Assembly: GCA_963662465.1 (NCBI GenBank)
Contig: OY759599.1
Location: 7,296,001 to 7,360,000, forward strand
DNA: 64,000 nt
Source: Desulfatiglandales bacterium
Lineage (GTDB): Bacteria; Desulfobacterota; DSM-4660; Desulfatiglandales; Desulfatiglandaceae
Direction: 5' to 3'
The translations under genes and the position numbers were made by a program. Below the pieces are notes generated by a model. That model had not been told where the DNA came from and did no database searches. It worked only from the letters and a program-made list of their open reading frames with translations. Position 1 is the first letter of the stretch. Each line of letters starts with the position of its first letter. Shown here in pieces: positions 4,120 to 46,153 of the stretch.

Positions 4120-5391
4120 ATGGGTAAAAAAAGGTTTGGTGAGACCAAAGATGAGAGAACTCCAGGCACAACGGGGTCTCACACGCGGATTTTGTCCATC
4201 GATGTCTATCGCGGATTTGCCCTTGTTTTTATGGTGCTGGTTCATTTCGGCATTTTCTATGGAAACGAGGATGCGGCTCACAGTTTTGCCATTTTCTTCT
4301 TTGATCATATTCTGGCCGACTGGGGAGCGGCGGCTTTCCTGATGATGATGGGCATGAGTCAGGTCCTGTCTGCAAAGAGAATCTGCAAGCCGGACAATCG
4401 GCTTCTGTTCAAGAGGGCTCTGGTGCGTGGCGCCTATATTTTTGTGGTGGGGCTTTTGATGCTGGTTCTGGCGTGGGGGCTGGATCAGATATGGTGGTGG
4501 GATATCCTCACGCTGATGGGGTTTGGAACCGTTGTTTTGTTCTTCTGTCGCTTTCTGCCGTCCTGGTCTCTGATCGGTCTCATTGGGGCCATCATGGTGC
4601 TGACCCCATGGCTTCGCGGCGCCTTCAATGTCGCGGCCGACTGGGGGTTTGCTGAACACCCAATCATCTCTCAATATTTGCCGGGAATGTATATCGAGCC
4701 GGAAGTTGCCTATCACCCGGCGATCGTCAAAGGCCTTTTTCTGTCCGGTTATTTTCCTGTTTTCCCATGGATCGCATTCATCATTATCGGGTTTGTTATG
4801 GGTCGACGCATTGTGGCGCAAAAGATGCGGCACGACCTGCCCATTTTGCTGGTGACAGGCGTTGTGCTTTCGTGCCTGGGATTTATTCTGGGTTACGCCG
4901 GTCGTACGCAACCTCCCATCTCGGCATCCATCGCATGGATATCCCCTTTATGCTTCTATCCGGACTCCTTTAGCCTGATCAACATACAGGCGGGCATTTC
5001 CATTATCGTTTTCAGCATGGTGTATTTCTTCTTCGATATCCGAAAGAAAGACAAAACAAAACTCGGCATTTTCAGCCGACTTTTTATCCAGACCAGTAAT
5101 TTCTCGTTAACCTTTTATTTTCTCCATTACATGTTGGTGGCATGGCCCCTCGCCATATTGTACCTGATCACCGGAAAGTACATGCTGAGCGATCTTATGG
5201 GTCCAGTGCTGGCTTTGCTCTGCGGTGTGGGAGCGGTCGCTTTTCTGGAAATCCTGATATTTTTCTGGGGGAAGGCCGGTTCCAGGTACAGCCTGGAATG
5301 GTTTCTTGTGAGGCTCACAAAACGGGTGGTCCCGGGCTATAAACGAAGCATATCAATGCCTGGGCGATTCTCCGAAAAATCGAACCCTTGA
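4120..5391 (+). CDS. DUF1624 / heparan-alpha-glucosaminide N-acetyltransferase-like membrane protein
   Basis: RILSIDVYRGFALVFMVLVH start, WDIL and YFPVFPW motifs, multiple TM segments. Confidence 0.8.
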   Translation: MGKKRFGETKDERTPGTTGSHTRILSIDVYRGFALVFMVLVHFGIFYGNEDAAHSFAIFFFDHILADWGAAAFLMMMGMSQVLSAKRICKPDNRLLFKRALVRGAYIFVVGLLMLVLAWGLDQIWWWDILTLMGFGTVVLFFCRFLPSWSLIGLIGAIMVLTPWLRGAFNVAADWGFAEHPIISQYLPGMYIEPEVAYHPAIVKGLFLSGYFPVFPWIAFIIIGFVMGRRIVAQKMRHDLPILLVTGVVLSCLGFILGYAGRTQPPISASIAWISPLCFYPDSFSLINIQAGISIIVFSMVYFFFDIRKKDKTKLGIFSRLFIQTSNFSLTFYFLHYMLVAWPLAILYLITGKYMLSDLMGPVLALLCGVGAVAFLEILIFFWGKAGSRYSLEWFLVRLTKRVVPGYKRSISMPGRFSEKSNP

Positions 5392-35302: not shown

Positions 35303-35457
35303 GGCTCATCGTGGATTCGCGTGAGATTTGGCTTCTGAGCCGATTGTAGGTGCGACTTCAGTCGCACATTAAGCCGACCCTGTGCGACTGAAGTCGCACC
35401 TACAGCCCGAACCGAAACAATCTCAAAGCGCGATTTCACGTTAATCCGCGATGAACC
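35303..35457. mobile_element. MITE (83-bp core) with 8-bp target duplication, carrying an inserted REP doublet
   Basis: Ends GGCTCATCG/CGATGAACC; GAAAGGAC on both flanks; an uninterrupted inverted copy lies at 63372-63454. Confidence 0.85.
35345..35404. repeat. REP doublet (REPIN-like)
   Basis: TGTAGGTGCGACTTCAGTCGCACA ... TGTGCGACTGAAGTCGCACCTACA: perfect inverted pair, each with GTAG plus an internal hairpin. Confidence 0.85.
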
Positions 35458-37150: not shown

Positions 37151-39352
37151 TTGGGTTTAGATCTTATCGTTCGCGTTTTAAATTTGCACTTCGATGAATT
37201 TCAAAATTTGGTAGAATGTACACTCGACACAGGGGATGATGTTCCGAAAACTGTGGATATGGAACCCCGTGTCGTCGTACTTGTCGAATAGTAATTCATG
37301 AATCTATCCCAAAAATCCATTTTGCAATATTATTAGGCTTTACCATCAAAAACGTTAGAAAAATTTACGTTTTTTAACTTTCATGAAATCATTGCAAGCT
37401 CCTGAGTTAACAGCCCTAATCCTTTATTGAGGAGTGAGTAAGCAGCTTCAATTTGAGATGGTTGCTCGGCGCCCTTGATAGGTTGCTTTTTGATAACCCC
37501 TGAAATCATTGGGTTTTTGAAATGGAGTTCAGAGCAAATTGAGAGCCATAGCCATTTCCAGCCTGTGTCCGTAACCCTATAGAATGACATGTTATTCTTC
37601 TTTTCGACAATTCCCCGGACCCTCAATTTGTTCATTTCATACCGGATTTGTGCAGGATTTCGAAAAGATTGGGGGAGGCTGTTGAGAAGATCCACTGTCC
37701 TGAAGCCATATGCATGGTATTTTGGCTTTAGAAGCTCTTGGGCCAGGGCGGTCTGACGATCTTTTCTGAAGTCCGGTGGGGTCACGTTGCGGCCAAGATG
37801 ATCTGAGACAGGCTTTTTGTAACGCTCCTCTTCTCCTTCTGAAATAGAGGCGATATCCACATCGGCACAGCATTCTAAAAATCGATCATTACATTCCACG
37901 CCTTCCCAAAGATAGGCCTGTAGATAGAGGACAGGTTTTTTAAGCCCCAGCGATTTGGGGTTATTGATGGTGGTCTCGGTGCGGATGTAATACCCGGTTT
38001 TGTTGTATTGCTTGATGGAGTTGCCTCGGAACCAGTGTTTGATGCACGCATTATTGTCATATAGCCGCCAGAAGGTCTTGGATGTTGATCGGCGATGGAG
38101 CCGACGATTGAAAATCTGAGCAATGGTCTCGGGCAATCCGAGACTGTGGAACTTATCCAAGAGCCTTTCAAAGAGGCTGGTGCAAAAACGCGCGGAACGA
38201 AACACAATATTAGAAGAAACTTCGACCTGGCTTGAATACCAGTCGTGATAAAGGAATTTGGATCGCCCAAGTCGGGTTGACATTTCCTTTGTCGAATTTG
38301 AAGAAAATATTCATCCAGTAGTTGATCCTGTTAAGTACAGCTCTGCCAGTGAGAGACGCAGCGGCTTTTTGAAGGGCCTCTGGATTTTCAACGTCAACAA
38401 ATGCGTTTTCGCTGAGCCTATATTTGATGCCAGCAATTCCCGCTCACCCTTGAAAGGCCTGAAAACAGTACATTTTGGTATTTCCTTTTCGTAAAGGTTT
38501 ACATTGAATGAATAACCCAGAAAGGCTTTTTTCTCAAATTTTCAAAAGAAATAAAAAAAAATTGGCATCTTTCAGGAAAAACTGGACTTTGGGAGCAACT
38601 TGAACGATGATTACTCCCTATGGGAATCACACGCCAAGAAAGAAAAAAACAAAAGGGCAAGATTGGAATTCGCAAGCATCTAAATGCAGACGCAATGCTC
38701 AAACGTTTGCATAAAGATTTTTCGGAGGTGTCTGACTATCGTGAGGATCCCGAAATCCCAATGGCGGATGCACTGATGTCCGGGTTTTCAATGTTTTCGC
38801 TCAAGGATCCCTCATTGCTTGCTTTTGATGGAAGAAGAAAAACCGATAGTAATCTGGCTGGAATATACCATATAGGAAAAGTTCCTTGCGACAGTCAGAT
38901 GCGCACTATTCTTGATGAAGTACTCGCAGAAGAACTTCGGAAACCGTTTAGGAATATCTTCTGGGAACTGCAAAGAGGAAAAGTGCTTGAACGTATGACT
39001 TTTTTCGAAGGATGTTATCTTCTATCTTTGGATGGAACGGGCTTTTTCTCTTCGAAAAAGCTCTACTCTGATAATTGTTTGGTAAAAGTATCGAAAAAAA
39101 CCCTTCAACGCTAATCAAAACTGAACCAAGTTTGCTAATGGAAATTGAACCATTGGCTGTCACCGCCAGTGAGTACGGCCCTCAGGTATAGCGGACGATG
39201 AGGGATCCATAAGTGGCGGCAAAGGAGTCGTTGATGTAGATTTACTTTTCAATAAATTTTTATAAAATCTATTTTCTTTGGATTTGGTTTTCTTCTTCCA
39301 AGACAGAGGCTTGGTTAAGTGGAAATGCGATTTACTTTGTAGAATGGATGGT

Positions 39353-39388
39353 GAAGGCCCGAAGTAGCCGCTTCGGGCCTTCTTTTTT
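39353..39388 (+). terminator. Intrinsic terminator inside the transposon left end
   Basis: GAAGGCCCGAAG-TAGCCG-CTTCGGGCCTTC-TTTTTT. Confidence 0.8.
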
Positions 39389-39464
39389 GACCACCGGATA
39401 GAGCCGGAAGCCACACACACGCCAATTTTATATAAGTGTGTTTCCGGCCAATTGCAAGGCCGGA

Positions 39465-39881
39465 ATGATGGGAGATGTCCTTTTAAGAGTGGTTCAATGC
39501 CGATGTTGTGGTTGCTTTTTTCACGTCTGTCGGTCGTGTTGGCGTGGCCAGGCCTATTGTGGGGAACGATGTCGCAGGATACGCCAAAGACAGCTGCACC
39601 GGAAAGCTCAGGGGAAATACCGCAATTCGAAAAAAGGGAAAGAGCGCCGTCGTTTGTACGAAAAAACAAAAAAATCCAAAAAAAATGGACTGAACCCTGG
39701 TGATGATAGTTCAACACCTCAAAAAGACTGTGATATTGAACCCAAAAAGCGGTCGGGGAACCGACCCAGCTGTCTTTTTTGCGGGTCGATCGGGGTTGTT
39801 GTGGACCATTTTCCTCGCCGTGCTTATGCAGGGAGGGTTTTTTCAGATGTAACAGGCTTTGAGAAAACCCCATATCCATGA
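39465..39881 (+). CDS. Cys-rich basic hypothetical protein (putative zinc finger)
   Basis: CRCCG..CRSCWRGQAYC..C, a basic helix and C-terminal CLFC; first gene of a tightly packed operon. Confidence 0.7.
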   Translation: MMGDVLLRVVQCRCCGCFFHVCRSCWRGQAYCGERCRRIRQRQLHRKAQGKYRNSKKGKERRRLYEKTKKSKKNGLNPGDDSSTPQKDCDIEPKKRSGNRPSCLFCGSIGVVVDHFPRRAYAGRVFSDVTGFEKTPYP

Positions 39882-39893
39882 CAGGAGAAAAAA

Positions 39894-40313
39894 ATGATCA
39901 AAAAAAGAGTCCTTTTTCCCGAAAGAGTGCGTGTCATCAATGGAAGCTTCGGCTTTCTGGAGCATCGTTTTTTGAGAAACGGCTTTTGGGAGAGCCTGAA
40001 TCATCATGAGCTGCTGCTCTACATTTTTCTGGTGTTGGTATCTGACAAAAACGGGCTCTCTTATTATGGTTACGACAGAATCTGCCGGATTTTAAAGGTG
40101 CATTTGGATCAATATATCGATGCCCGCGATGGCTTGTTGGACAAGGATCTGATTGGGTTTGATGGCCGTCTGTTTCAGGTTCTTTCGCTTCCCAGACGTC
40201 CTGTGATTGTGAAACAGGTAAAGGAGATCCGGCAAGGAAATTGGGTCAGTCTTGGAGAAACCATAGAGGAAATCTTTCGGGAGACTGGGTATGGAATCCA
40301 TCCGAACCGTTGA
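39894..40313 (+). CDS. Hypothetical winged-helix protein (replication-initiator N-terminus-like)
   Basis: AGGAG RBS; LNHHELLLYIFL..GLSYYGYDRICRIL..ARDGLLDKDLI pattern. Confidence 0.7.
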   Translation: MIKKRVLFPERVRVINGSFGFLEHRFLRNGFWESLNHHELLLYIFLVLVSDKNGLSYYGYDRICRILKVHLDQYIDARDGLLDKDLIGFDGRLFQVLSLPRRPVIVKQVKEIRQGNWVSLGETIEEIFRETGYGIHPNR

Positions 40314-41175
40314 TATTCATTTGCTGGAGTTGCGTTACGCTCATTGCCGGATAATGAATCACCAGGCTTTAAAGCGATTGAGGGATTCCATCGAAACTTA
40401 CGGGCAGATCGTTCCGGCCCTGGCTATTGAAGAAAAAGACAAACTGATTCTGATTGATGGCTACCTGCGTGTTCGAGCGCTTTGTGCTTGTGGAAAGGAC
40501 CGGATATGTGTCCAATTCTCAAAAGAAAACGAACAAAATGCCATGTTTTCGCTTTTAACCAAGGCCAATGAACGGCAATGGGAAGTCATTGAGCAGTCTG
40601 TTTTACTTCAGGAATTACATCGGCGTTTTGGGTGCAGCCTCTCCCATATTGCAACCCGAATAGGGCGCGACAAGAGTTTTGTAAAACGGCGGCTGGACCT
40701 GGTTGAAGCCCTGCCGGAAAATATTTTGAGAACCGTGATTGCAGGCTCACTTTCAACCTGGGCTGCCAGCCGTGTCATGGCGCCGTTGGCGCGCGCCAAC
40801 GGTGAAGACGCACAAAAACTGTTGGCCCACCTGGAAAAAGAACCTCTATCCACAAGGGAACTGGCCCGTTTCTACGCACATTACCAGAAAAGCAACCGGT
40901 CTGTTCGAGACCACATGCTGGAAAATCCATCCCTTTTCATAAAAGTTCTCGAACAAAGAACCCAGTCTAAACAAGCCAAAGAAGTTCATGATGGACCGGA
41001 AGGCAAATGGTTCAAGGATATTGAAATGGTATATGCGGTTCTCAAACGTCTGGTGAAAACCGTTTCGCATGTCCATTACCCAAAAAGCGATCAGTTGAAG
41101 AAACAAACGCTCAAAACCTGGGTGAAAAAGATAGAAAAACAAGCACTGGAACTCAAGAAAGCGACCCAATTATGA
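40291..41175 (+). CDS. ParB/Spo0J-like protein
   Basis: LRDSIETYGQIVP..LIDGYLRVRAL (ParB N-domain GxxR motif) and HTH IATRIGRDKSFVKRRL. Confidence 0.85.
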   Translation: MESIRTVDIHLLELRYAHCRIMNHQALKRLRDSIETYGQIVPALAIEEKDKLILIDGYLRVRALCACGKDRICVQFSKENEQNAMFSLLTKANERQWEVIEQSVLLQELHRRFGCSLSHIATRIGRDKSFVKRRLDLVEALPENILRTVIAGSLSTWAASRVMAPLARANGEDAQKLLAHLEKEPLSTRELARFYAHYQKSNRSVRDHMLENPSLFIKVLEQRTQSKQAKEVHDGPEGKWFKDIEMVYAVLKRLVKTVSHVHYPKSDQLKKQTLKTWVKKIEKQALELKKATQL

Positions 41176-42554
41176 TCCGACAATCCAAAAAAGATGCCAT
41201 TGTGGAATTGAAAAAAACCGGCATGAGTTTGCGCGACATCGCCAAAACCCTGAAGGCCGGTCGCAATACCGTCACGAAGGTTTTAGATGATCATGACGAA
41301 GAGGCGGTACCCCAAAGGAACTCCCGGTATGAAGAACATGTCCCGTTGATCCGCGAGCTTTTCAAGGAATGTAAAGGAAATGCCGTGCGAGTAGCCGAGG
41401 AACTGGAAAGCCGCCAACAGATCAAAATCCCTTATCAGAGTCTGACCTGGATTATGAGAAAGTACGAGATCCGGGAACGTAAAAAAAGACGGGCGGGCCA
41501 ATACCATTTTAAACCCGGTCAGGAGATGCAGCATGATACGTCACCCCATCTGGTTGTCATTAATGGGAAAAAAATGTCGACCCAGTGCGCGTCCCTGACC
41601 CTGGCCTTTTGCCGAAGGATTTTTATTCAGTATTACCCCTGTTTTACCCGGTTTGAGTGCAAGGTTTTCCTAAAAAAAGCATTCGAGTTTATGGACGGGG
41701 TGTGTTCCCGGTGCATGGTTGACAACACCAATGTTATTGTGGCCGGCGGCACCGGGCCTGATGCATTGATTGCGCCTGAAATGAAATACTTCGGCGATAT
41801 GTATGGAACCCGGTTTGAGGCCCATGCTGTAGGAGACGCCAATCGAAGTGCCCGTGTGGAAAGGCCTTTTCATTTTGTGGAAAACAATTTTCTTCCCGGT
41901 AGAACATTTGTTAGCTGGCAGGATTTGAACCGGCAGGCAATCGACTGGTGCCGGAATACAAGCGATAAAAAGTTTAAACGGGCTTTAGGGATGACGCCGG
42001 ATGAGGCCTATGTCATTGAAAAGCCATATCTCATTGATTTACCGGCATACCAGCCGCCAGTCTATGTGGCAGAACACAGGGTAGCCGATGTTCAGGGATA
42101 TGTGCACTTGGACACCAACCGCTATTCAGTCCCTGAAGCGCTGATTGGGAACTCCCTGGAAGTACAGAAACATTGGCTCAAGGTCATCGTTTACGACAAA
42201 AACACAAAAGTGGCGGAACATGACCGCATACTGGATAAACGCAACACCCGAACAACCCTGCCCGGTCACCATGTTCCCATTCGAAGAAAAAAAGATCCCC
42301 GAATCCCTTCAAAAGAAGAACAGCTGTTGACGGGAGAGGATGCCATCCTGGATGAGTATGTGGCTGAACTGAAGAAAAGAAGTCACGGTCGCGGTGTGGT
42401 CAAGTTACGTCGGTTGCTTCATCTGAAACGCACTTATCCCGGGGAACCTTTTTTGAAAGCCATAACACAGGCGCTTAAATATGGACTTTTTGATTTGTCG
42501 CGTCTGGAAAACATTATTCTCGATTATATCGCGGGAGACTTTTTTGATCTATGA
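41172..42554 (+). CDS. istA: IS21-family transposase
   Basis: N-terminal HTH, PGQEMQHD, VDN, RVERPFHFVENNF and NRYSVP. Confidence 0.9.
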   Translation: MIRQSKKDAIVELKKTGMSLRDIAKTLKAGRNTVTKVLDDHDEEAVPQRNSRYEEHVPLIRELFKECKGNAVRVAEELESRQQIKIPYQSLTWIMRKYEIRERKKRRAGQYHFKPGQEMQHDTSPHLVVINGKKMSTQCASLTLAFCRRIFIQYYPCFTRFECKVFLKKAFEFMDGVCSRCMVDNTNVIVAGGTGPDALIAPEMKYFGDMYGTRFEAHAVGDANRSARVERPFHFVENNFLPGRTFVSWQDLNRQAIDWCRNTSDKKFKRALGMTPDEAYVIEKPYLIDLPAYQPPVYVAEHRVADVQGYVHLDTNRYSVPEALIGNSLEVQKHWLKVIVYDKNTKVAEHDRILDKRNTRTTLPGHHVPIRRKKDPRIPSKEEQLLTGEDAILDEYVAELKKRSHGRGVVKLRRLLHLKRTYPGEPFLKAITQALKYGLFDLSRLENIILDYIAGDFFDL

Positions 42555-43270
42555 AAAAGAAAATTGAACAGTTACTCATTGATTTGAAGTTTAAAGGCAT
42601 GCTGAAGGCTCTCGAAGAACAGTTGGCTTCGGCTGAAAAGAACGGTTTTTCCATTCACGAGGTCATCTACAATCTCCTGGCTGAGGAATTACGTTTCCGG
42701 CAGGAGCGCAGCATGATCTATCGGGTCCAGATTGCAAAGCTTCCATGGGAATGGACCCTCAACTCCTTTCCGTTTGATCTTCAGCCGGGAATACAGAAGA
42801 GCCGGATCATGACGTTGTCCGGCCTTGACTTTATCAGCCGAAGAGAAAACATCGTGTTCCATGGAAAAACCGGCGTCGGCAAAACGGGATTGGCCGTGGG
42901 GATCCTTCGTCAAGCCATTATTGCCGGGTACCGGGGGCGTTTTTATAATGTTCAGGATTTGCTGGATCAGCTCTATGCGTCTTTGGCAGATCGGTCCACC
43001 CCGAAACTCCTCAATGCCCTTTGCAGATATGACCTGCTTCTGCTCGATGAACTGGGATACCTGACCCTCAAAAAAGAGCAGATGAACGCCTTTTTTAAAC
43101 TCATGAAAGATCGCTATGAAGCCGGTCGGTCCACAATTATTACGACCAATCTTCAACCTGAACAATGGTATTCGCTGCTTGAACCAAAGGACATGGTCGA
43201 TGCCTTGCTGGATCGTCTCAACCATCGCTGCATCAACATTCATATTGATGGTCCTTCCCTCAGAAAATGA
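42551..43270 (+). CDS. istB: IS21 helper AAA+ ATPase
   Basis: GKTGVGKT, LLLLDELGY, IITTN, ALLDRL and GPSLR. Confidence 0.95.
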   Translation: MKKKIEQLLIDLKFKGMLKALEEQLASAEKNGFSIHEVIYNLLAEELRFRQERSMIYRVQIAKLPWEWTLNSFPFDLQPGIQKSRIMTLSGLDFISRRENIVFHGKTGVGKTGLAVGILRQAIIAGYRGRFYNVQDLLDQLYASLADRSTPKLLNALCRYDLLLLDELGYLTLKKEQMNAFFKLMKDRYEAGRSTIITTNLQPEQWYSLLEPKDMVDALLDRLNHRCINIHIDGPSLRK

Positions 43271-43368
43271 GATGTTCGCCAAAGGGCCGGTTTTGAGGTC
43301 TGAATATCACCGGTCTGTTTGAATCTCGTTACACGAATATCAGAAATTACCTTGTCTTGGAGCTTGAA

Positions 43369-43566
43369 ATGAGAGGTGGAAAACGGGTAGGCGCCGGCCG
43401 AAGAAAGAAACCGGAACATTTGAGACGTGAACTGCTCACCATTCGTCTCCCCAAATGGATGATTCTACAGCTGAAAAAAAACGGGGAAATTGGATATTTG
43501 ATTGAGGATCAATTGGCGAAGGGAGGCCTCCTGAATTTACCGGACGACTATGACATAGACAAATAG
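43369..43566 (+). CDS. Small putative DNA-binding protein
   Basis: RGGKRVGAGRRK basic motif followed by TIRLP (ribbon-helix-like); GGAG RBS. Confidence 0.55.
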   Translation: MRGGKRVGAGRRKKPEHLRRELLTIRLPKWMILQLKKNGEIGYLIEDQLAKGGLLNLPDDYDIDK

Positions 43567-45771
43567 TTCCTCAATAAGCATTGCCCTTAACCGAAAAATC
43601 TAATCCCCTCTTCTCTGCCATCACCATATTGATGGTATCCTCATCACTGATTCTTCAACCAGAACGCTACGTGTCTCACCAGCATTTTTAAAATACCATC
43701 TGATATACTCTTTCATGCAACCTCTAACAAATTTACAAGAAAACCCTTCTAAAAGGAAAAGACCAGTGCGCAATATCTGGTTCCGTTTGGAGTAGCAAAA
43801 CTGGTTCCATTTTGGTTAGCGCCCAAGAAAAAACCGGCGAAAAGACCTATTACCAGCAGATGCTGGGGGCAGCGATTGTGCATCCCGATTTCAAAGAGGT
43901 CATTCCGCTTGCTCCGGAATTCATAGTAAAGCAGGACGGCCAAAGCAAAAACGACTGTGAGCGTAATGCAGCGAAACGTTTCTTGAGTAAGCTGAAAAGG
44001 GATCATCCGCATCTGTCTCTCATCATTACAGAAGACGCGTTAAGTTCGAATGCACCCCATATAGAGGAAATACAAAAGCAAAACTTTCATTATATTCTGG
44101 GAGTTAAACGAGGCGATCATCCTTTCTTATTTAATCATGTCGAACAAGCGCGGGTAAATGGTGGCGTTACTGAATTCGAATTGGTCGACAAAGAGGATCC
44201 GGAAAAAACGCATCGCTTCCGATTCCTTAACCATGTACCTCTCAACGCCTCTAACAAGGATGTACTGGTTAACTTTCTGGAATATTGGGAAATTACACCG
44301 GAAAAAACACAGCATTTCAGTTGGGTGACTGATTTTATCATAGAAAAGGACAATGCATACGAGCTGATGCGAGGCGGTCGTGCGAGATGGAAGATCGAAA
44401 ATGAAACCTTCAATACTCTTAAAAACCAAGGTTATCATTTTGAACATAACTTCGGCCTTGGCAAGAAGAATCTGAGTGTTGTTTTCGCGATGCTCATGAT
44501 GATTGCATTTCTGGTTGATCAAACGCAGCAGCTTTGTTGTCCCTTATTTCGAGCTGCATGGCAGAAACTCGGTTCCAAAAGAGAATTATGGGAACGTATG
44601 AGAGCTCTGTTTAAAGATTTTGAATTCAAATCCATGAGGATGCTCTATGAAGCTCTCTATTATGGTGTGAAATTCCAAGCGCCAGTCATTTTGTATGACA
44701 CTGGGTGAATTTGCGATGTCCAATTTGCATACAAGAGTGCTCTCAATAAAAAATCTGGAGTTTCCGGAAATGGATATCTCTGTCCTGACTCAGATCTTTT
44801 TACGTTCTTTCTCTTCTGGAAAGCCTCAATCTGTGAAAAATCGAAGGAGCCAACAGTGAATTTGGAGTAATCTTCTGAAAAGTTTTTGATCTCACCGTTT
44901 ATTTTTCAAATTTGTGTTACAAACTCGGTGAGTAAATTCCTGAGCGGGAATTGCTGATTTGATGCCTTGTTTGTCGAGCTGGAGTTGAATGGCATTGTGG
45001 CCGTTGAAATAGAATTCTGCACGAAAAGGAAGGTAGGAAGAGATTTTGAGGTAGCAGAGGCCACCGAGAAGGGCATCGTGCAAGTAGATGTAATACTGCT
45101 TCACCGGCTTTCTGCAGTCATAGATTCGTTCATAGGGCTTTCCGGCTTTTGAAGTGAGTTGCCTGCAGGCAAATGTTCTAACCGGTTCTTTGTCCGTAAG
45201 GATGCAAAACACATGGTTTCCTTTTCCTGTAAAGGCCTTGGCGTATTTTTGTTCCACGAATTTTGATTTTGCGCCGTCAGTGCCACCCCCTTCAGAGGGC
45301 CACCAGTGAATGGGGATATTGTTGTTCCGGGCTACCTTTTGAATATGACCATTGAGTTGGTCGGTTAGAATCCTCATTACACCGTTTGACAATCCTTTGA
45401 ATCCGAGAGTCCTGAGGAGCCTGACAATGCCTGCTGGAGAAAAGAGGGAGAGAATGTAGCCTCGAATAATAACCCGATCGAAGCAGAAATATTTGAACTT
45501 GATATTTTCTGAGAATTGATTCAAAAATGAATTCTTCATGGGTGTATCCTCCGGTGAGGGAATGTTAGCTAAACAATCCATACCGGATCACCCATGAAAT
45601 TTCAAATCAAAGAATGGGATTTTAGGCAGGGGGTTAAGAGACTTCAGGATGGTCAGATGACGCCAAAAGCTTCATCAACTTTAATATCCGGGATTTGCCC
45701 CGGCCAAAAATATAACCATCATGTCATTAGCCCCCTGCCTACAGCCCTTTTCGGAACTTTAGTTTGGTAAA

Positions 45772-46153
45772 TATATGAGGCTTTTCCAGAATTGTCCGAT
45801 TCCTGATGGAGCTTTTTGACCCCCGGCATTTTCTCGGCTTCCTTGCTGATTTTGATGCCATCGCCAGCCAATAGCAATCGGCCATCAATCTTAACCAGTG
45901 GGCAACTGGAGAGAACAATTTTCCACCAGCGGTGCATGATGGTTTTCAATTCCCAGGACGATGCTCTGAAAAACCCGAGAAGAGACGTGTAAAACCGAGG
46001 TTCAATGCCCAACCATCGGATAAAAGAGCTGACGCCATATTGGTCCAGCCTGACGGTAAAGCCAAAAATTACAATCACGAACCAGTCAAAAGTTGCCCTG
46101 CGGCTGAAACAGGATCTGAATTGTTCGAGTATCCAACTGATCTCGCTTATCAT
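45772..46153 (-). pseudogene. IS701/IS4-superfamily transposase, N-terminal fragment
   Basis: FRSCFSRRATFDWF..AGDGIKISKEAEKMPGVKKLHQESDNSGK, cut off at the IR of the next element. Confidence 0.75.

Follow-up and report, generated by a model that had tools for sequence, protein, structure and literature searches.

A probable new class of bacterial transposon with a predicted TBP-fold, Rep_trans-like tyrosine transposase

We analysed a window of 64,000 nucleotides from a Desulfatiglandales bacterium (assembly GCA_963662465.1, contig OY759599.1, positions 7,296,001 to 7,360,000 of the forward strand), in which a one-gene mobile element, interrupted by other elements, occupies positions 37337 to 45770. 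The element belongs to a real and recently active family of insertion sequences (IS), whose mobility and ends were observed directly, and is probably a member of a new class of bacterial transposon. Its only protein resembles the nicking enzymes with which rolling-circle plasmids begin their replication, and no known transposase. The enzyme that moves it is very probably a tyrosine-type protein of the TBP fold. A first-pass annotation of the window had proposed a tyrosine-based family outside the standard IS classes, and this proposal gains support from the fold match of the modelled protein and the order of its conserved residues. We consider it likely that we are dealing with a widespread transposon class in which a TBP-fold nickase of the Rep_trans type serves as the transposase. 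This would be a second, non-HUH invention of rolling-circle transposition, with insertion without duplication at sites that mimic the circle junction, with gene-less derivatives and perhaps with a second conserved patch used for target capture.

We found no description of a Rep_trans-like transposase in the open literature, with subscription journals, ISfinder and TnCentral outside the search. A review gives Rep_trans proteins only as initiators of plasmids and phages and as relaxases of integrative and conjugative elements (ICEs), and its rolling-circle transposons are IS91 and Helitrons (PMC5714925). If our reading is true, a Rep_trans-fold transposase would be an added chemistry among transposases. 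Neither Pfam nor NCBIfam detects the family, and its annotation is hypothetical or, in some database copies, ArsR regulator; IS counts and gene-disruption calls therefore miss it. As a one-gene element of 1.8 kb with scarless insertion at a 3-nt target, it could also serve as a useful tool.

Mobility, ends and target sites

The copy in the window is dead, since it carries a frameshift and two inserts. Excision of positions 38431 to 44956 leaves two pieces that are 96.8% and 99.1% identical by BLAST to one uninterrupted sister element of 1893 bp in the same genome (G000:7566467-7568359, fetched as L001). In the sister copy one open frame runs through 552 codons, or 538 counted from the second ATG, which bears out the earlier claim that removal of the insert rebuilds one gene of about 540 codons with one frameshift. 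This gene takes up 1659 of the 1893 bp (88%), with no second gene present. Two more partial copies and one short end fragment were found in the genome. The parts of the element in the window are as follows.

37337..45770, minus strand: whole element, gene strand 5'-TTACC...AAAGC-3', from BLAST against an intact copy, ends across loci and the empty site
45745..45770, minus strand: gene-upstream end (putative ter), TTACCAAACTAAAGTTCCGAAA; homology begins at the same base in most loci
44957..45581, minus strand: 5' portion of the transposase gene (after the duplication), coding for residues 1 to about 208
45477..45479, minus strand: D35, putative first metal ligand, a conserved column
37381..38430, minus strand: 3' portion of the transposase gene, coding for residues about 230 to 552, with a frameshift (net gain of 7 nt) at about 38266-38280
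38221..38223, minus strand: E273, putative second metal ligand, at the presumed position of RepD D142 by strand order
37975..38013, minus strand: K343-x-Y345-x-K347...R353-x-E355, putative catalytic tyrosine and metal ligand; Y345 codon at 38005-38007
37462..37845, minus strand: winged-helix domain, residues about 399 to 526, HxlR/PadR/MarR-like
37348..37374, no strand: subterminal palindrome, AAAAACGT-11 nt-ACGTTTTT, candidate site for the winged-helix domain and putative ori end
37334..37336, minus strand: target triplet CTA (an NTA), part of the flank, adjoining the gene-downstream end

When 40 loci from named genomes were compared, similarity broke off sharply at identical bases on both sides. 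On the gene strand the element starts with TTA(C/G)CAAACT(A/G)AAGTTC and finishes with a palindrome and then AAAGC. The element first placed at 37339..45771 is real, and homology limits and the empty site move its true ends to 37337 and 45770. Following the AAGC end, 22 of 26 distinct non-junction flanks start with NTA (N being A in 11, T in 7, G in 2 and C in 2), compared with TA at 3.7% of genome positions; the 26 are 34 rows minus 3 junction rows, 4 flanks without the AAGC end and 1 empty flank. At the gene-upstream ends (29 rows, including two junction rows), T comes first in 25 and the flanks are A-rich at -5 to -3 (20, 19 and 15 of 29).

Comparison of filled and empty sites agreed with the earlier remark that no target-site duplication is visible. 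Two empty paralogues of L002 read GATAGT|GTAAA where the filled site reads GATAGT|TTACC, so the 5' T belongs to the element, and in L026 and L012 the first base past the 3' end is identical to the base of the target. From the register of these three loci it follows that neither TA nor NTA is duplicated. Two empty orthologues of a Caballeronia copy show the start of a gene with a single core. For the sister copy, a contig of run X1 joins both flanks and skips exactly 1893 bases (GC..AA) with zero shared letters; its depth equals that of the flanks, and 30 letters lie on its shorter side. Because run X1 also contains the insert junction and the frameshift of the window copy, the sister insertion is polymorphic between near-identical populations. 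Runs X1 and X4 showed loose element ends with other flanks at L001 position 2968, and runs X1, X4 and X6 showed them at 4860/4861. The RNA runs X10 and X12 contain about 0.3 of the sequence words. None of 10 genomes of the genus had an empty orthologue for the sister copy, and none of 5 had an orthologue joining the two flanks of the window copy. The sister copy (L001:2968-4860) splits a gene that by eye resembles hexapeptide acetyltransferases, amid glycosyltransferase-like genes, at the site that is empty in X1.

The imperfect 24-bp inverted repeats (IRs) described in the first-pass annotation are a real resemblance in this copy (16/24 in its register), but they begin 3-4 nt inside the true end. 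In a shuffle test of 15 elements with offsets up to 7, 15/23 in the window copy was matched by 14 of 2000 shuffles, and three close relatives also exceeded chance (9-83 of 2000). The other 11, all 3 distant ones among them, were at chance level, and there is no family-wide terminal IR. In subfamily A, the type found in the window, the two ends have different cores, and the element itself contains a single NTA-type core, at its gene-upstream end.

The downstream palindrome of the window copy has an 8-bp stem that folds no better than shuffles (z -0.6 and -1.0). Its sequence is conserved in relatives, and other subfamilies carry unrelated palindromes at the matching position, of which that in the relative G004 folds beyond shuffles (z -2.8). 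Since folding exceeds shuffles in G004 and not in the window, the palindrome is more probably bound by a protein than folded into a hairpin. No stable hairpin was found at the gene-upstream end (z +1.6 and +2.2).

The homologues are multicopy with sharp, conserved ends, in keeping with the first-pass reading. Genome G004 holds 8 copies of a related element that are 97-100% alike and have different flanks. All of these copies start with CTAGCC and are followed by CTAA. Copies of the Burkholderia group start with CTAACG and are followed by CTAG in 3 of 3 cases, and Rhodococcus copies show the CTAG end in 3 of 5 listed (one other has a tandem of it and one is different). The G004-type upstream end has 12 matches in the genome of the window, and 6 of them belong to gene-less elements, about 105-190 bp long, in which the palindrome and the downstream end are retained (L102-L107, at G000:C1 391513, 974732, 4016002, 5880591, 6353549 and 6398643); no autonomous G004-type copy was found in this genome.

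Joined ends were met in three assemblies. Contig L018 (1942 bp) overlaps itself by 55 bases at its termini and contains the junction AAAGC|TTACC. L111 is circular, overlaps by 123 bases and has 93 bases in addition, and in L108 the final 15 bases of the element stand at the contig start, joined to the element's first bases. A single core is present at every junction. The assemblies fit circles and tandem copies alike. Metagenomes gave 7 matches to the junction motif, of which 5 had no transposase nearby and were not counted as circles. A sigma-70-like promoter, TTGAAA-17-TAAAGT, spans the end-to-end junction at L111:1789-1817 and was not called in L018; as a lead only, a circle might turn on its own gene from it.

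The family comprises 1902 representatives at 50% identity and is present in 19 of 401 genomes sampled in the source phylum. It also occurs on plasmids of Rhodococcus, Mycobacterium and Burkholderia, where it sits as an insert in replicons of 0.2-1.9 Mb. A search of 50,697 phage records found no match, and neither did one among close viral contigs. Taken as a discrete element with fixed ends, many sites and empty sites, it is an insertion sequence. On a Mycobacterium plasmid two divergent members stand head to tail (L089:1-3153), and in L029 a 3' end of the family is inserted beside another 3' end; judging from these arrangements, elements of the family might target each other's ends. Five loci of one genome (L007, L012, L023, L024 and L026) have lengths of 1990-2130 bp; they contain inserts of about 100 bp, and their frames are broken.

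The transposase and how it may act

All protein analyses used the 552-codon sister-copy protein (P0001), in which the motif SIKQYNK-x5-RTETTIN and the C-terminal winged helix-turn-helix (wHTH) domain that had been read from the window were both present. The model of the whole protein is a TBP-like antiparallel sheet with the C-terminal wHTH. Fold searches with it were dominated by the wHTH, and the catalytic domain was modelled alone. This model (pLDDT 91.8, pTM 0.90) shows a TBP-like fold across residues 15-395, and its best Foldseek matches, weak at E about 3e-3, are the Rep_trans structures 4cwe and 4cij. No RNase H, DDE or HUH structure was among the 50 fold matches listed.

Sequence databases contributed little. 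For 30 of 101 aligned proteins, Pfam and NCBIfam gave only weak wHTH matches and no IS family model, and PF25227 (DUF7845) matched none of the 30. PHROGs likewise gave only weak wHTH matches for 10 members, a search of the PDB by sequence found nothing for the protein (its profile gave wHTH rows only, at E 0.2 or more), and the ESM Atlas listed only clusters of hypothetical proteins.

Among the 101 relatives D35 is kept in 97 (the other 4 are gaps), E273 in 99, K343 in 98, Y345 in 99, K347 in 98, and R353 and E355 in 100 each. Y345 and K347 lie in the strand 340-347 and R353 and E355 in the strand 351-358; D35, E273 and E355, the putative metal ligands, are on three separate strands in the Rep_trans order. 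Motif III (YxK in a strand) and motif IV (RxE) are present, and the E of YxKxxE is absent; at the place of motif I there is QxE rather than RxD, and at that of motif II K/R-x-variable rather than T/SxY/ExG. The first-pass annotation saw no HUH motif, and rightly so: apart from H195, no histidine is conserved in 90% or more of the 101 sequences, and Y345 is in a strand, not a helix. A second conserved patch (E132, Y164, Y166, N193, H195 and N214) lies in the catalytic domain of about 380 residues, which also carries inserts, and may be a family-specific functional site for target capture. The tyrosine chemistry is predicted from these residues, and a weak-to-moderate fold match and the residue order together suggest a kinship with Rep_trans.

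We hold it to be likely, on balance, that the transposase is a Rep_trans-like TBP-fold tyrosine nickase with a wHTH, which nicks single strands and transfers them by way of a circle, most likely replicatively as in IS91. The IS91 pattern consists of a short target beside the downstream end, a copy of its motif within the opposite end, joined ends and the lack of a duplication. In such a cycle the wHTH would bind the palindrome downstream of the gene, and Y345, with a metal held by D35, E273 and E355, would nick the non-coding strand at TAN^GCTTT and stay on the 5' phosphate; it is only by analogy that we take the non-coding strand to be the one cut. Host replication would displace the nicked strand until the internal GGTAA^ is cut, and the freed 3'-OH would close a circle with the gene-strand junction AAAGC-TTACC. 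The same reaction could then open the circle into a junction-like target, A-rich^NTA. With its open frame, the sister copy could act in trans on the dead copy in the window.

Several observations weigh against this proposal. The profile-profile comparison with Rep_trans was not significant, and PF02486 (Rep_trans) was matched by 0 of 30 members at E 0.1 and had no match in G000 either. The nick of MOBT and Rep_trans proteins is CT'AA (PMC9371924), and the cores CTAA and CTAG of the distant subfamilies resemble it; in the window subfamily, the crossover on the gene strand would fall before N and not at T'A, and the likeness is a lead only. Precise ends on both sides, which are usual in the family, and the empty allele in X1, which could be an excision product, speak for the main rival. 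There the same tyrosine enzyme works by a non-replicative peel-and-paste of the IS200/IS605 style: it cuts both ends on single-stranded DNA at a replication fork, the donor site is closed again without a trace, and an NTA target receives the circle. It fits the exact ends, the absence of duplication, the short target, the joined ends and the subterminal palindromes equally well. We nevertheless regard it as unlikely, because there is no stable hairpin upstream, the downstream palindrome is weak as a hairpin, and every characterised relative of the fold initiates rolling-circle replication (PMC5714925, PMC13107129).

Two further explanations are less probable still, and equally so. The element may be a minimal rolling-circle replicon whose initiator amplifies a free circle, with chromosomal copies arising from strand transfer as a side activity at origin-like sites. 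The targets do resemble the junction, circular contigs were found, and a TBP-fold nickase with a MarR-like wHTH and a downstream palindrome is the Rep-Arvir architecture (PMC13107129). However, the family behaves as an IS, with many dispersed chromosomal copies and gene-less derivatives, it has no match in the 50,697 phage records or the close viral contigs searched, and its plasmid copies are inserts in large replicons. The other is a conservative, double-strand site-specific recombination at a 3-nt core, with an outcome like that of IS110, by a TBP-sheet nuclease whose tyrosine need not be the nucleophile. Here the core NTA/CTA at both junctions and the likeness of target and junction are in favour, as are the modest Rep_trans fold score and the second conserved patch, which could be another active site. 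However, the cores of subfamily A are unequal at the two ends and give no shared homology core, and the K-x-Y-x-K and R-x-E strands stand in the Rep_trans order.

Two last readings are largely refuted, namely that the enzyme is a divergent, IS630-like DDE transposase whose element has imperfect terminal IRs and duplicates TA or 3 bp, and that the gene is a passenger regulator moved by another element: the weak IR-like resemblance in 4 of 15 elements, TA at both junctions and the ArsR names are outweighed by the confident sheet model, by the empty site GATAGT-GTAAA against the filled GATAGT-TTACC, which excludes TA or NTA duplication, and by a gene that fills nearly the whole element with no other beside it.

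The interrupted copy and its surroundings

The stretch from 37337 to 45770 consists of three nested elements, the outermost being about 1.9 kb once the inserts are removed. The insert had been taken for a single one; it is removable, as stated, and is itself interrupted.

38431..44956, plus strand: nested DDE insertion sequence with 16-bp perfect IRs and the 9-bp duplication ATTTGATGC, itself interrupted
39103..43827, plus strand: IS21-like element inside the DDE element, 4725 bp, with istA, istB, passengers and the 8-bp duplication AAAAAACC
45771..46153, minus strand: IS701-family transposase gene, cut at TATAT^TTA (NCBIfam IS701, E 1.1e-12)

Twelve further copies of the DDE element with both halves are present in the genome at 84-100% identity. 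The first-pass annotation labelled it ISNCY; its gene matches Pfam DDE_Tnp_1 (E 2.9e-5), and the ISAs1 model stays below its cut-off. The IS21-like element has 21 full-length copies, the one in the window counted. Before istA it has a small Cys-rich open reading frame (ORF), a helix-turn-helix gene and a ParB-like gene, and after istB a small ORF. Its IRs start CTTCAACGC / CTTGGGCGC and differ from TG, the usual IR start for IS21.

The IS701-like gene is indeed truncated by our element, as had been noted, for uncut paralogues run on past the cut point as TATTTACGGA / TATTTATGGG. The DNA of the left flank starts with CTA, yet it is unrelated to the IS701 gene and holds no continuation of it, and the two flanks of the window copy therefore derive from different target sites. 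Deletion or recombination between copies after the insertion would account for the mismatch. At 37163-37221, 115 bp from the left end of the element, there is an end of about 55 bp of another repeat, which occurs at 9 other places and then diverges; it may mark a deletion that took the rest of the IS701 gene. A perfect 24-bp inverted repeat starting with TGTAG lies at 35345-35404; it is REP-like (repetitive extragenic palindromic) and has 112 genome matches, one of them inside an element with the G004-type end.

Comparison with known systems

The protein resembles Rep_trans initiators (PF02486: RepD/RepDE, RepSTK1) and MOBT relaxases in its curved TBP-like sheet, in a strand tyrosine set as basic-x-Y-x-K and followed by R-x-E, and in three acidic residues that occupy separate strands and succeed one another alike. 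Its K343/Y345/K347/R353/E355 match the active-site residues R189/Y191/K193/R212/E214 of RepD (PMC4797284). It departs from them in QxE for RxD, in having no T/SxYxG and no E after YxK, and in being housed in a multicopy IS and not in a replicon or ICE.

Rep-Arvir proteins (DUF7845/PF25227; RepSNJ2) are closer in layout. They belong to archaeal viruses and plasmids and fuse a Rep_trans-like TBP fold to a MarR-like wHTH (PMC13107129). Our family shares with them the nickase-type domain, the wHTH, the palindrome downstream of the gene and a kinship seen by structure alone, and the same BFVD entries, A0A2N9QVX7 and A0A345MNV4, were retrieved. The family differs in being bacterial, in having no PF25227 match and in carrying KxYxK in place of KHYYM. 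Rep-Arvir elements replicate and integrate via a separate integrase, whereas the window-type element lacks an integrase and increases its copies within the chromosome.

Unlike DDE transposases, the family has neither terminal IRs nor target duplication. IS200/IS605 elements also show no duplication, a short target, exact empty sites, subterminal palindromes and gene-less derivatives, and the family has all of these features. However, their TnpA is a small HUH protein, whereas here we find a TBP-fold protein of 540 residues, and the element lacks both tnpB and an upstream hairpin.

In its probable working the family is like IS91, but it is not an HUH element. IS91 has a short target, a tetramer, beside one end, where its ori is positioned, and a copy of the target inside the other end. 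IS91 and Helitrons have circular forms and a replicative model (PMC5714925), and with IS91, ISCR and Helitrons our family shares dissimilar ends, the lack of terminal IRs and of target duplication, and probably circular forms, to judge from the joined ends. The family differs from IS91 in the loose NTA target of subfamily A, which is not a fixed tetramer; no ter read-through was seen in it, and the enzymes of these transposons are HUH proteins with helical tyrosines, whereas that of the present family has a predicted TBP fold with its tyrosine in a strand.

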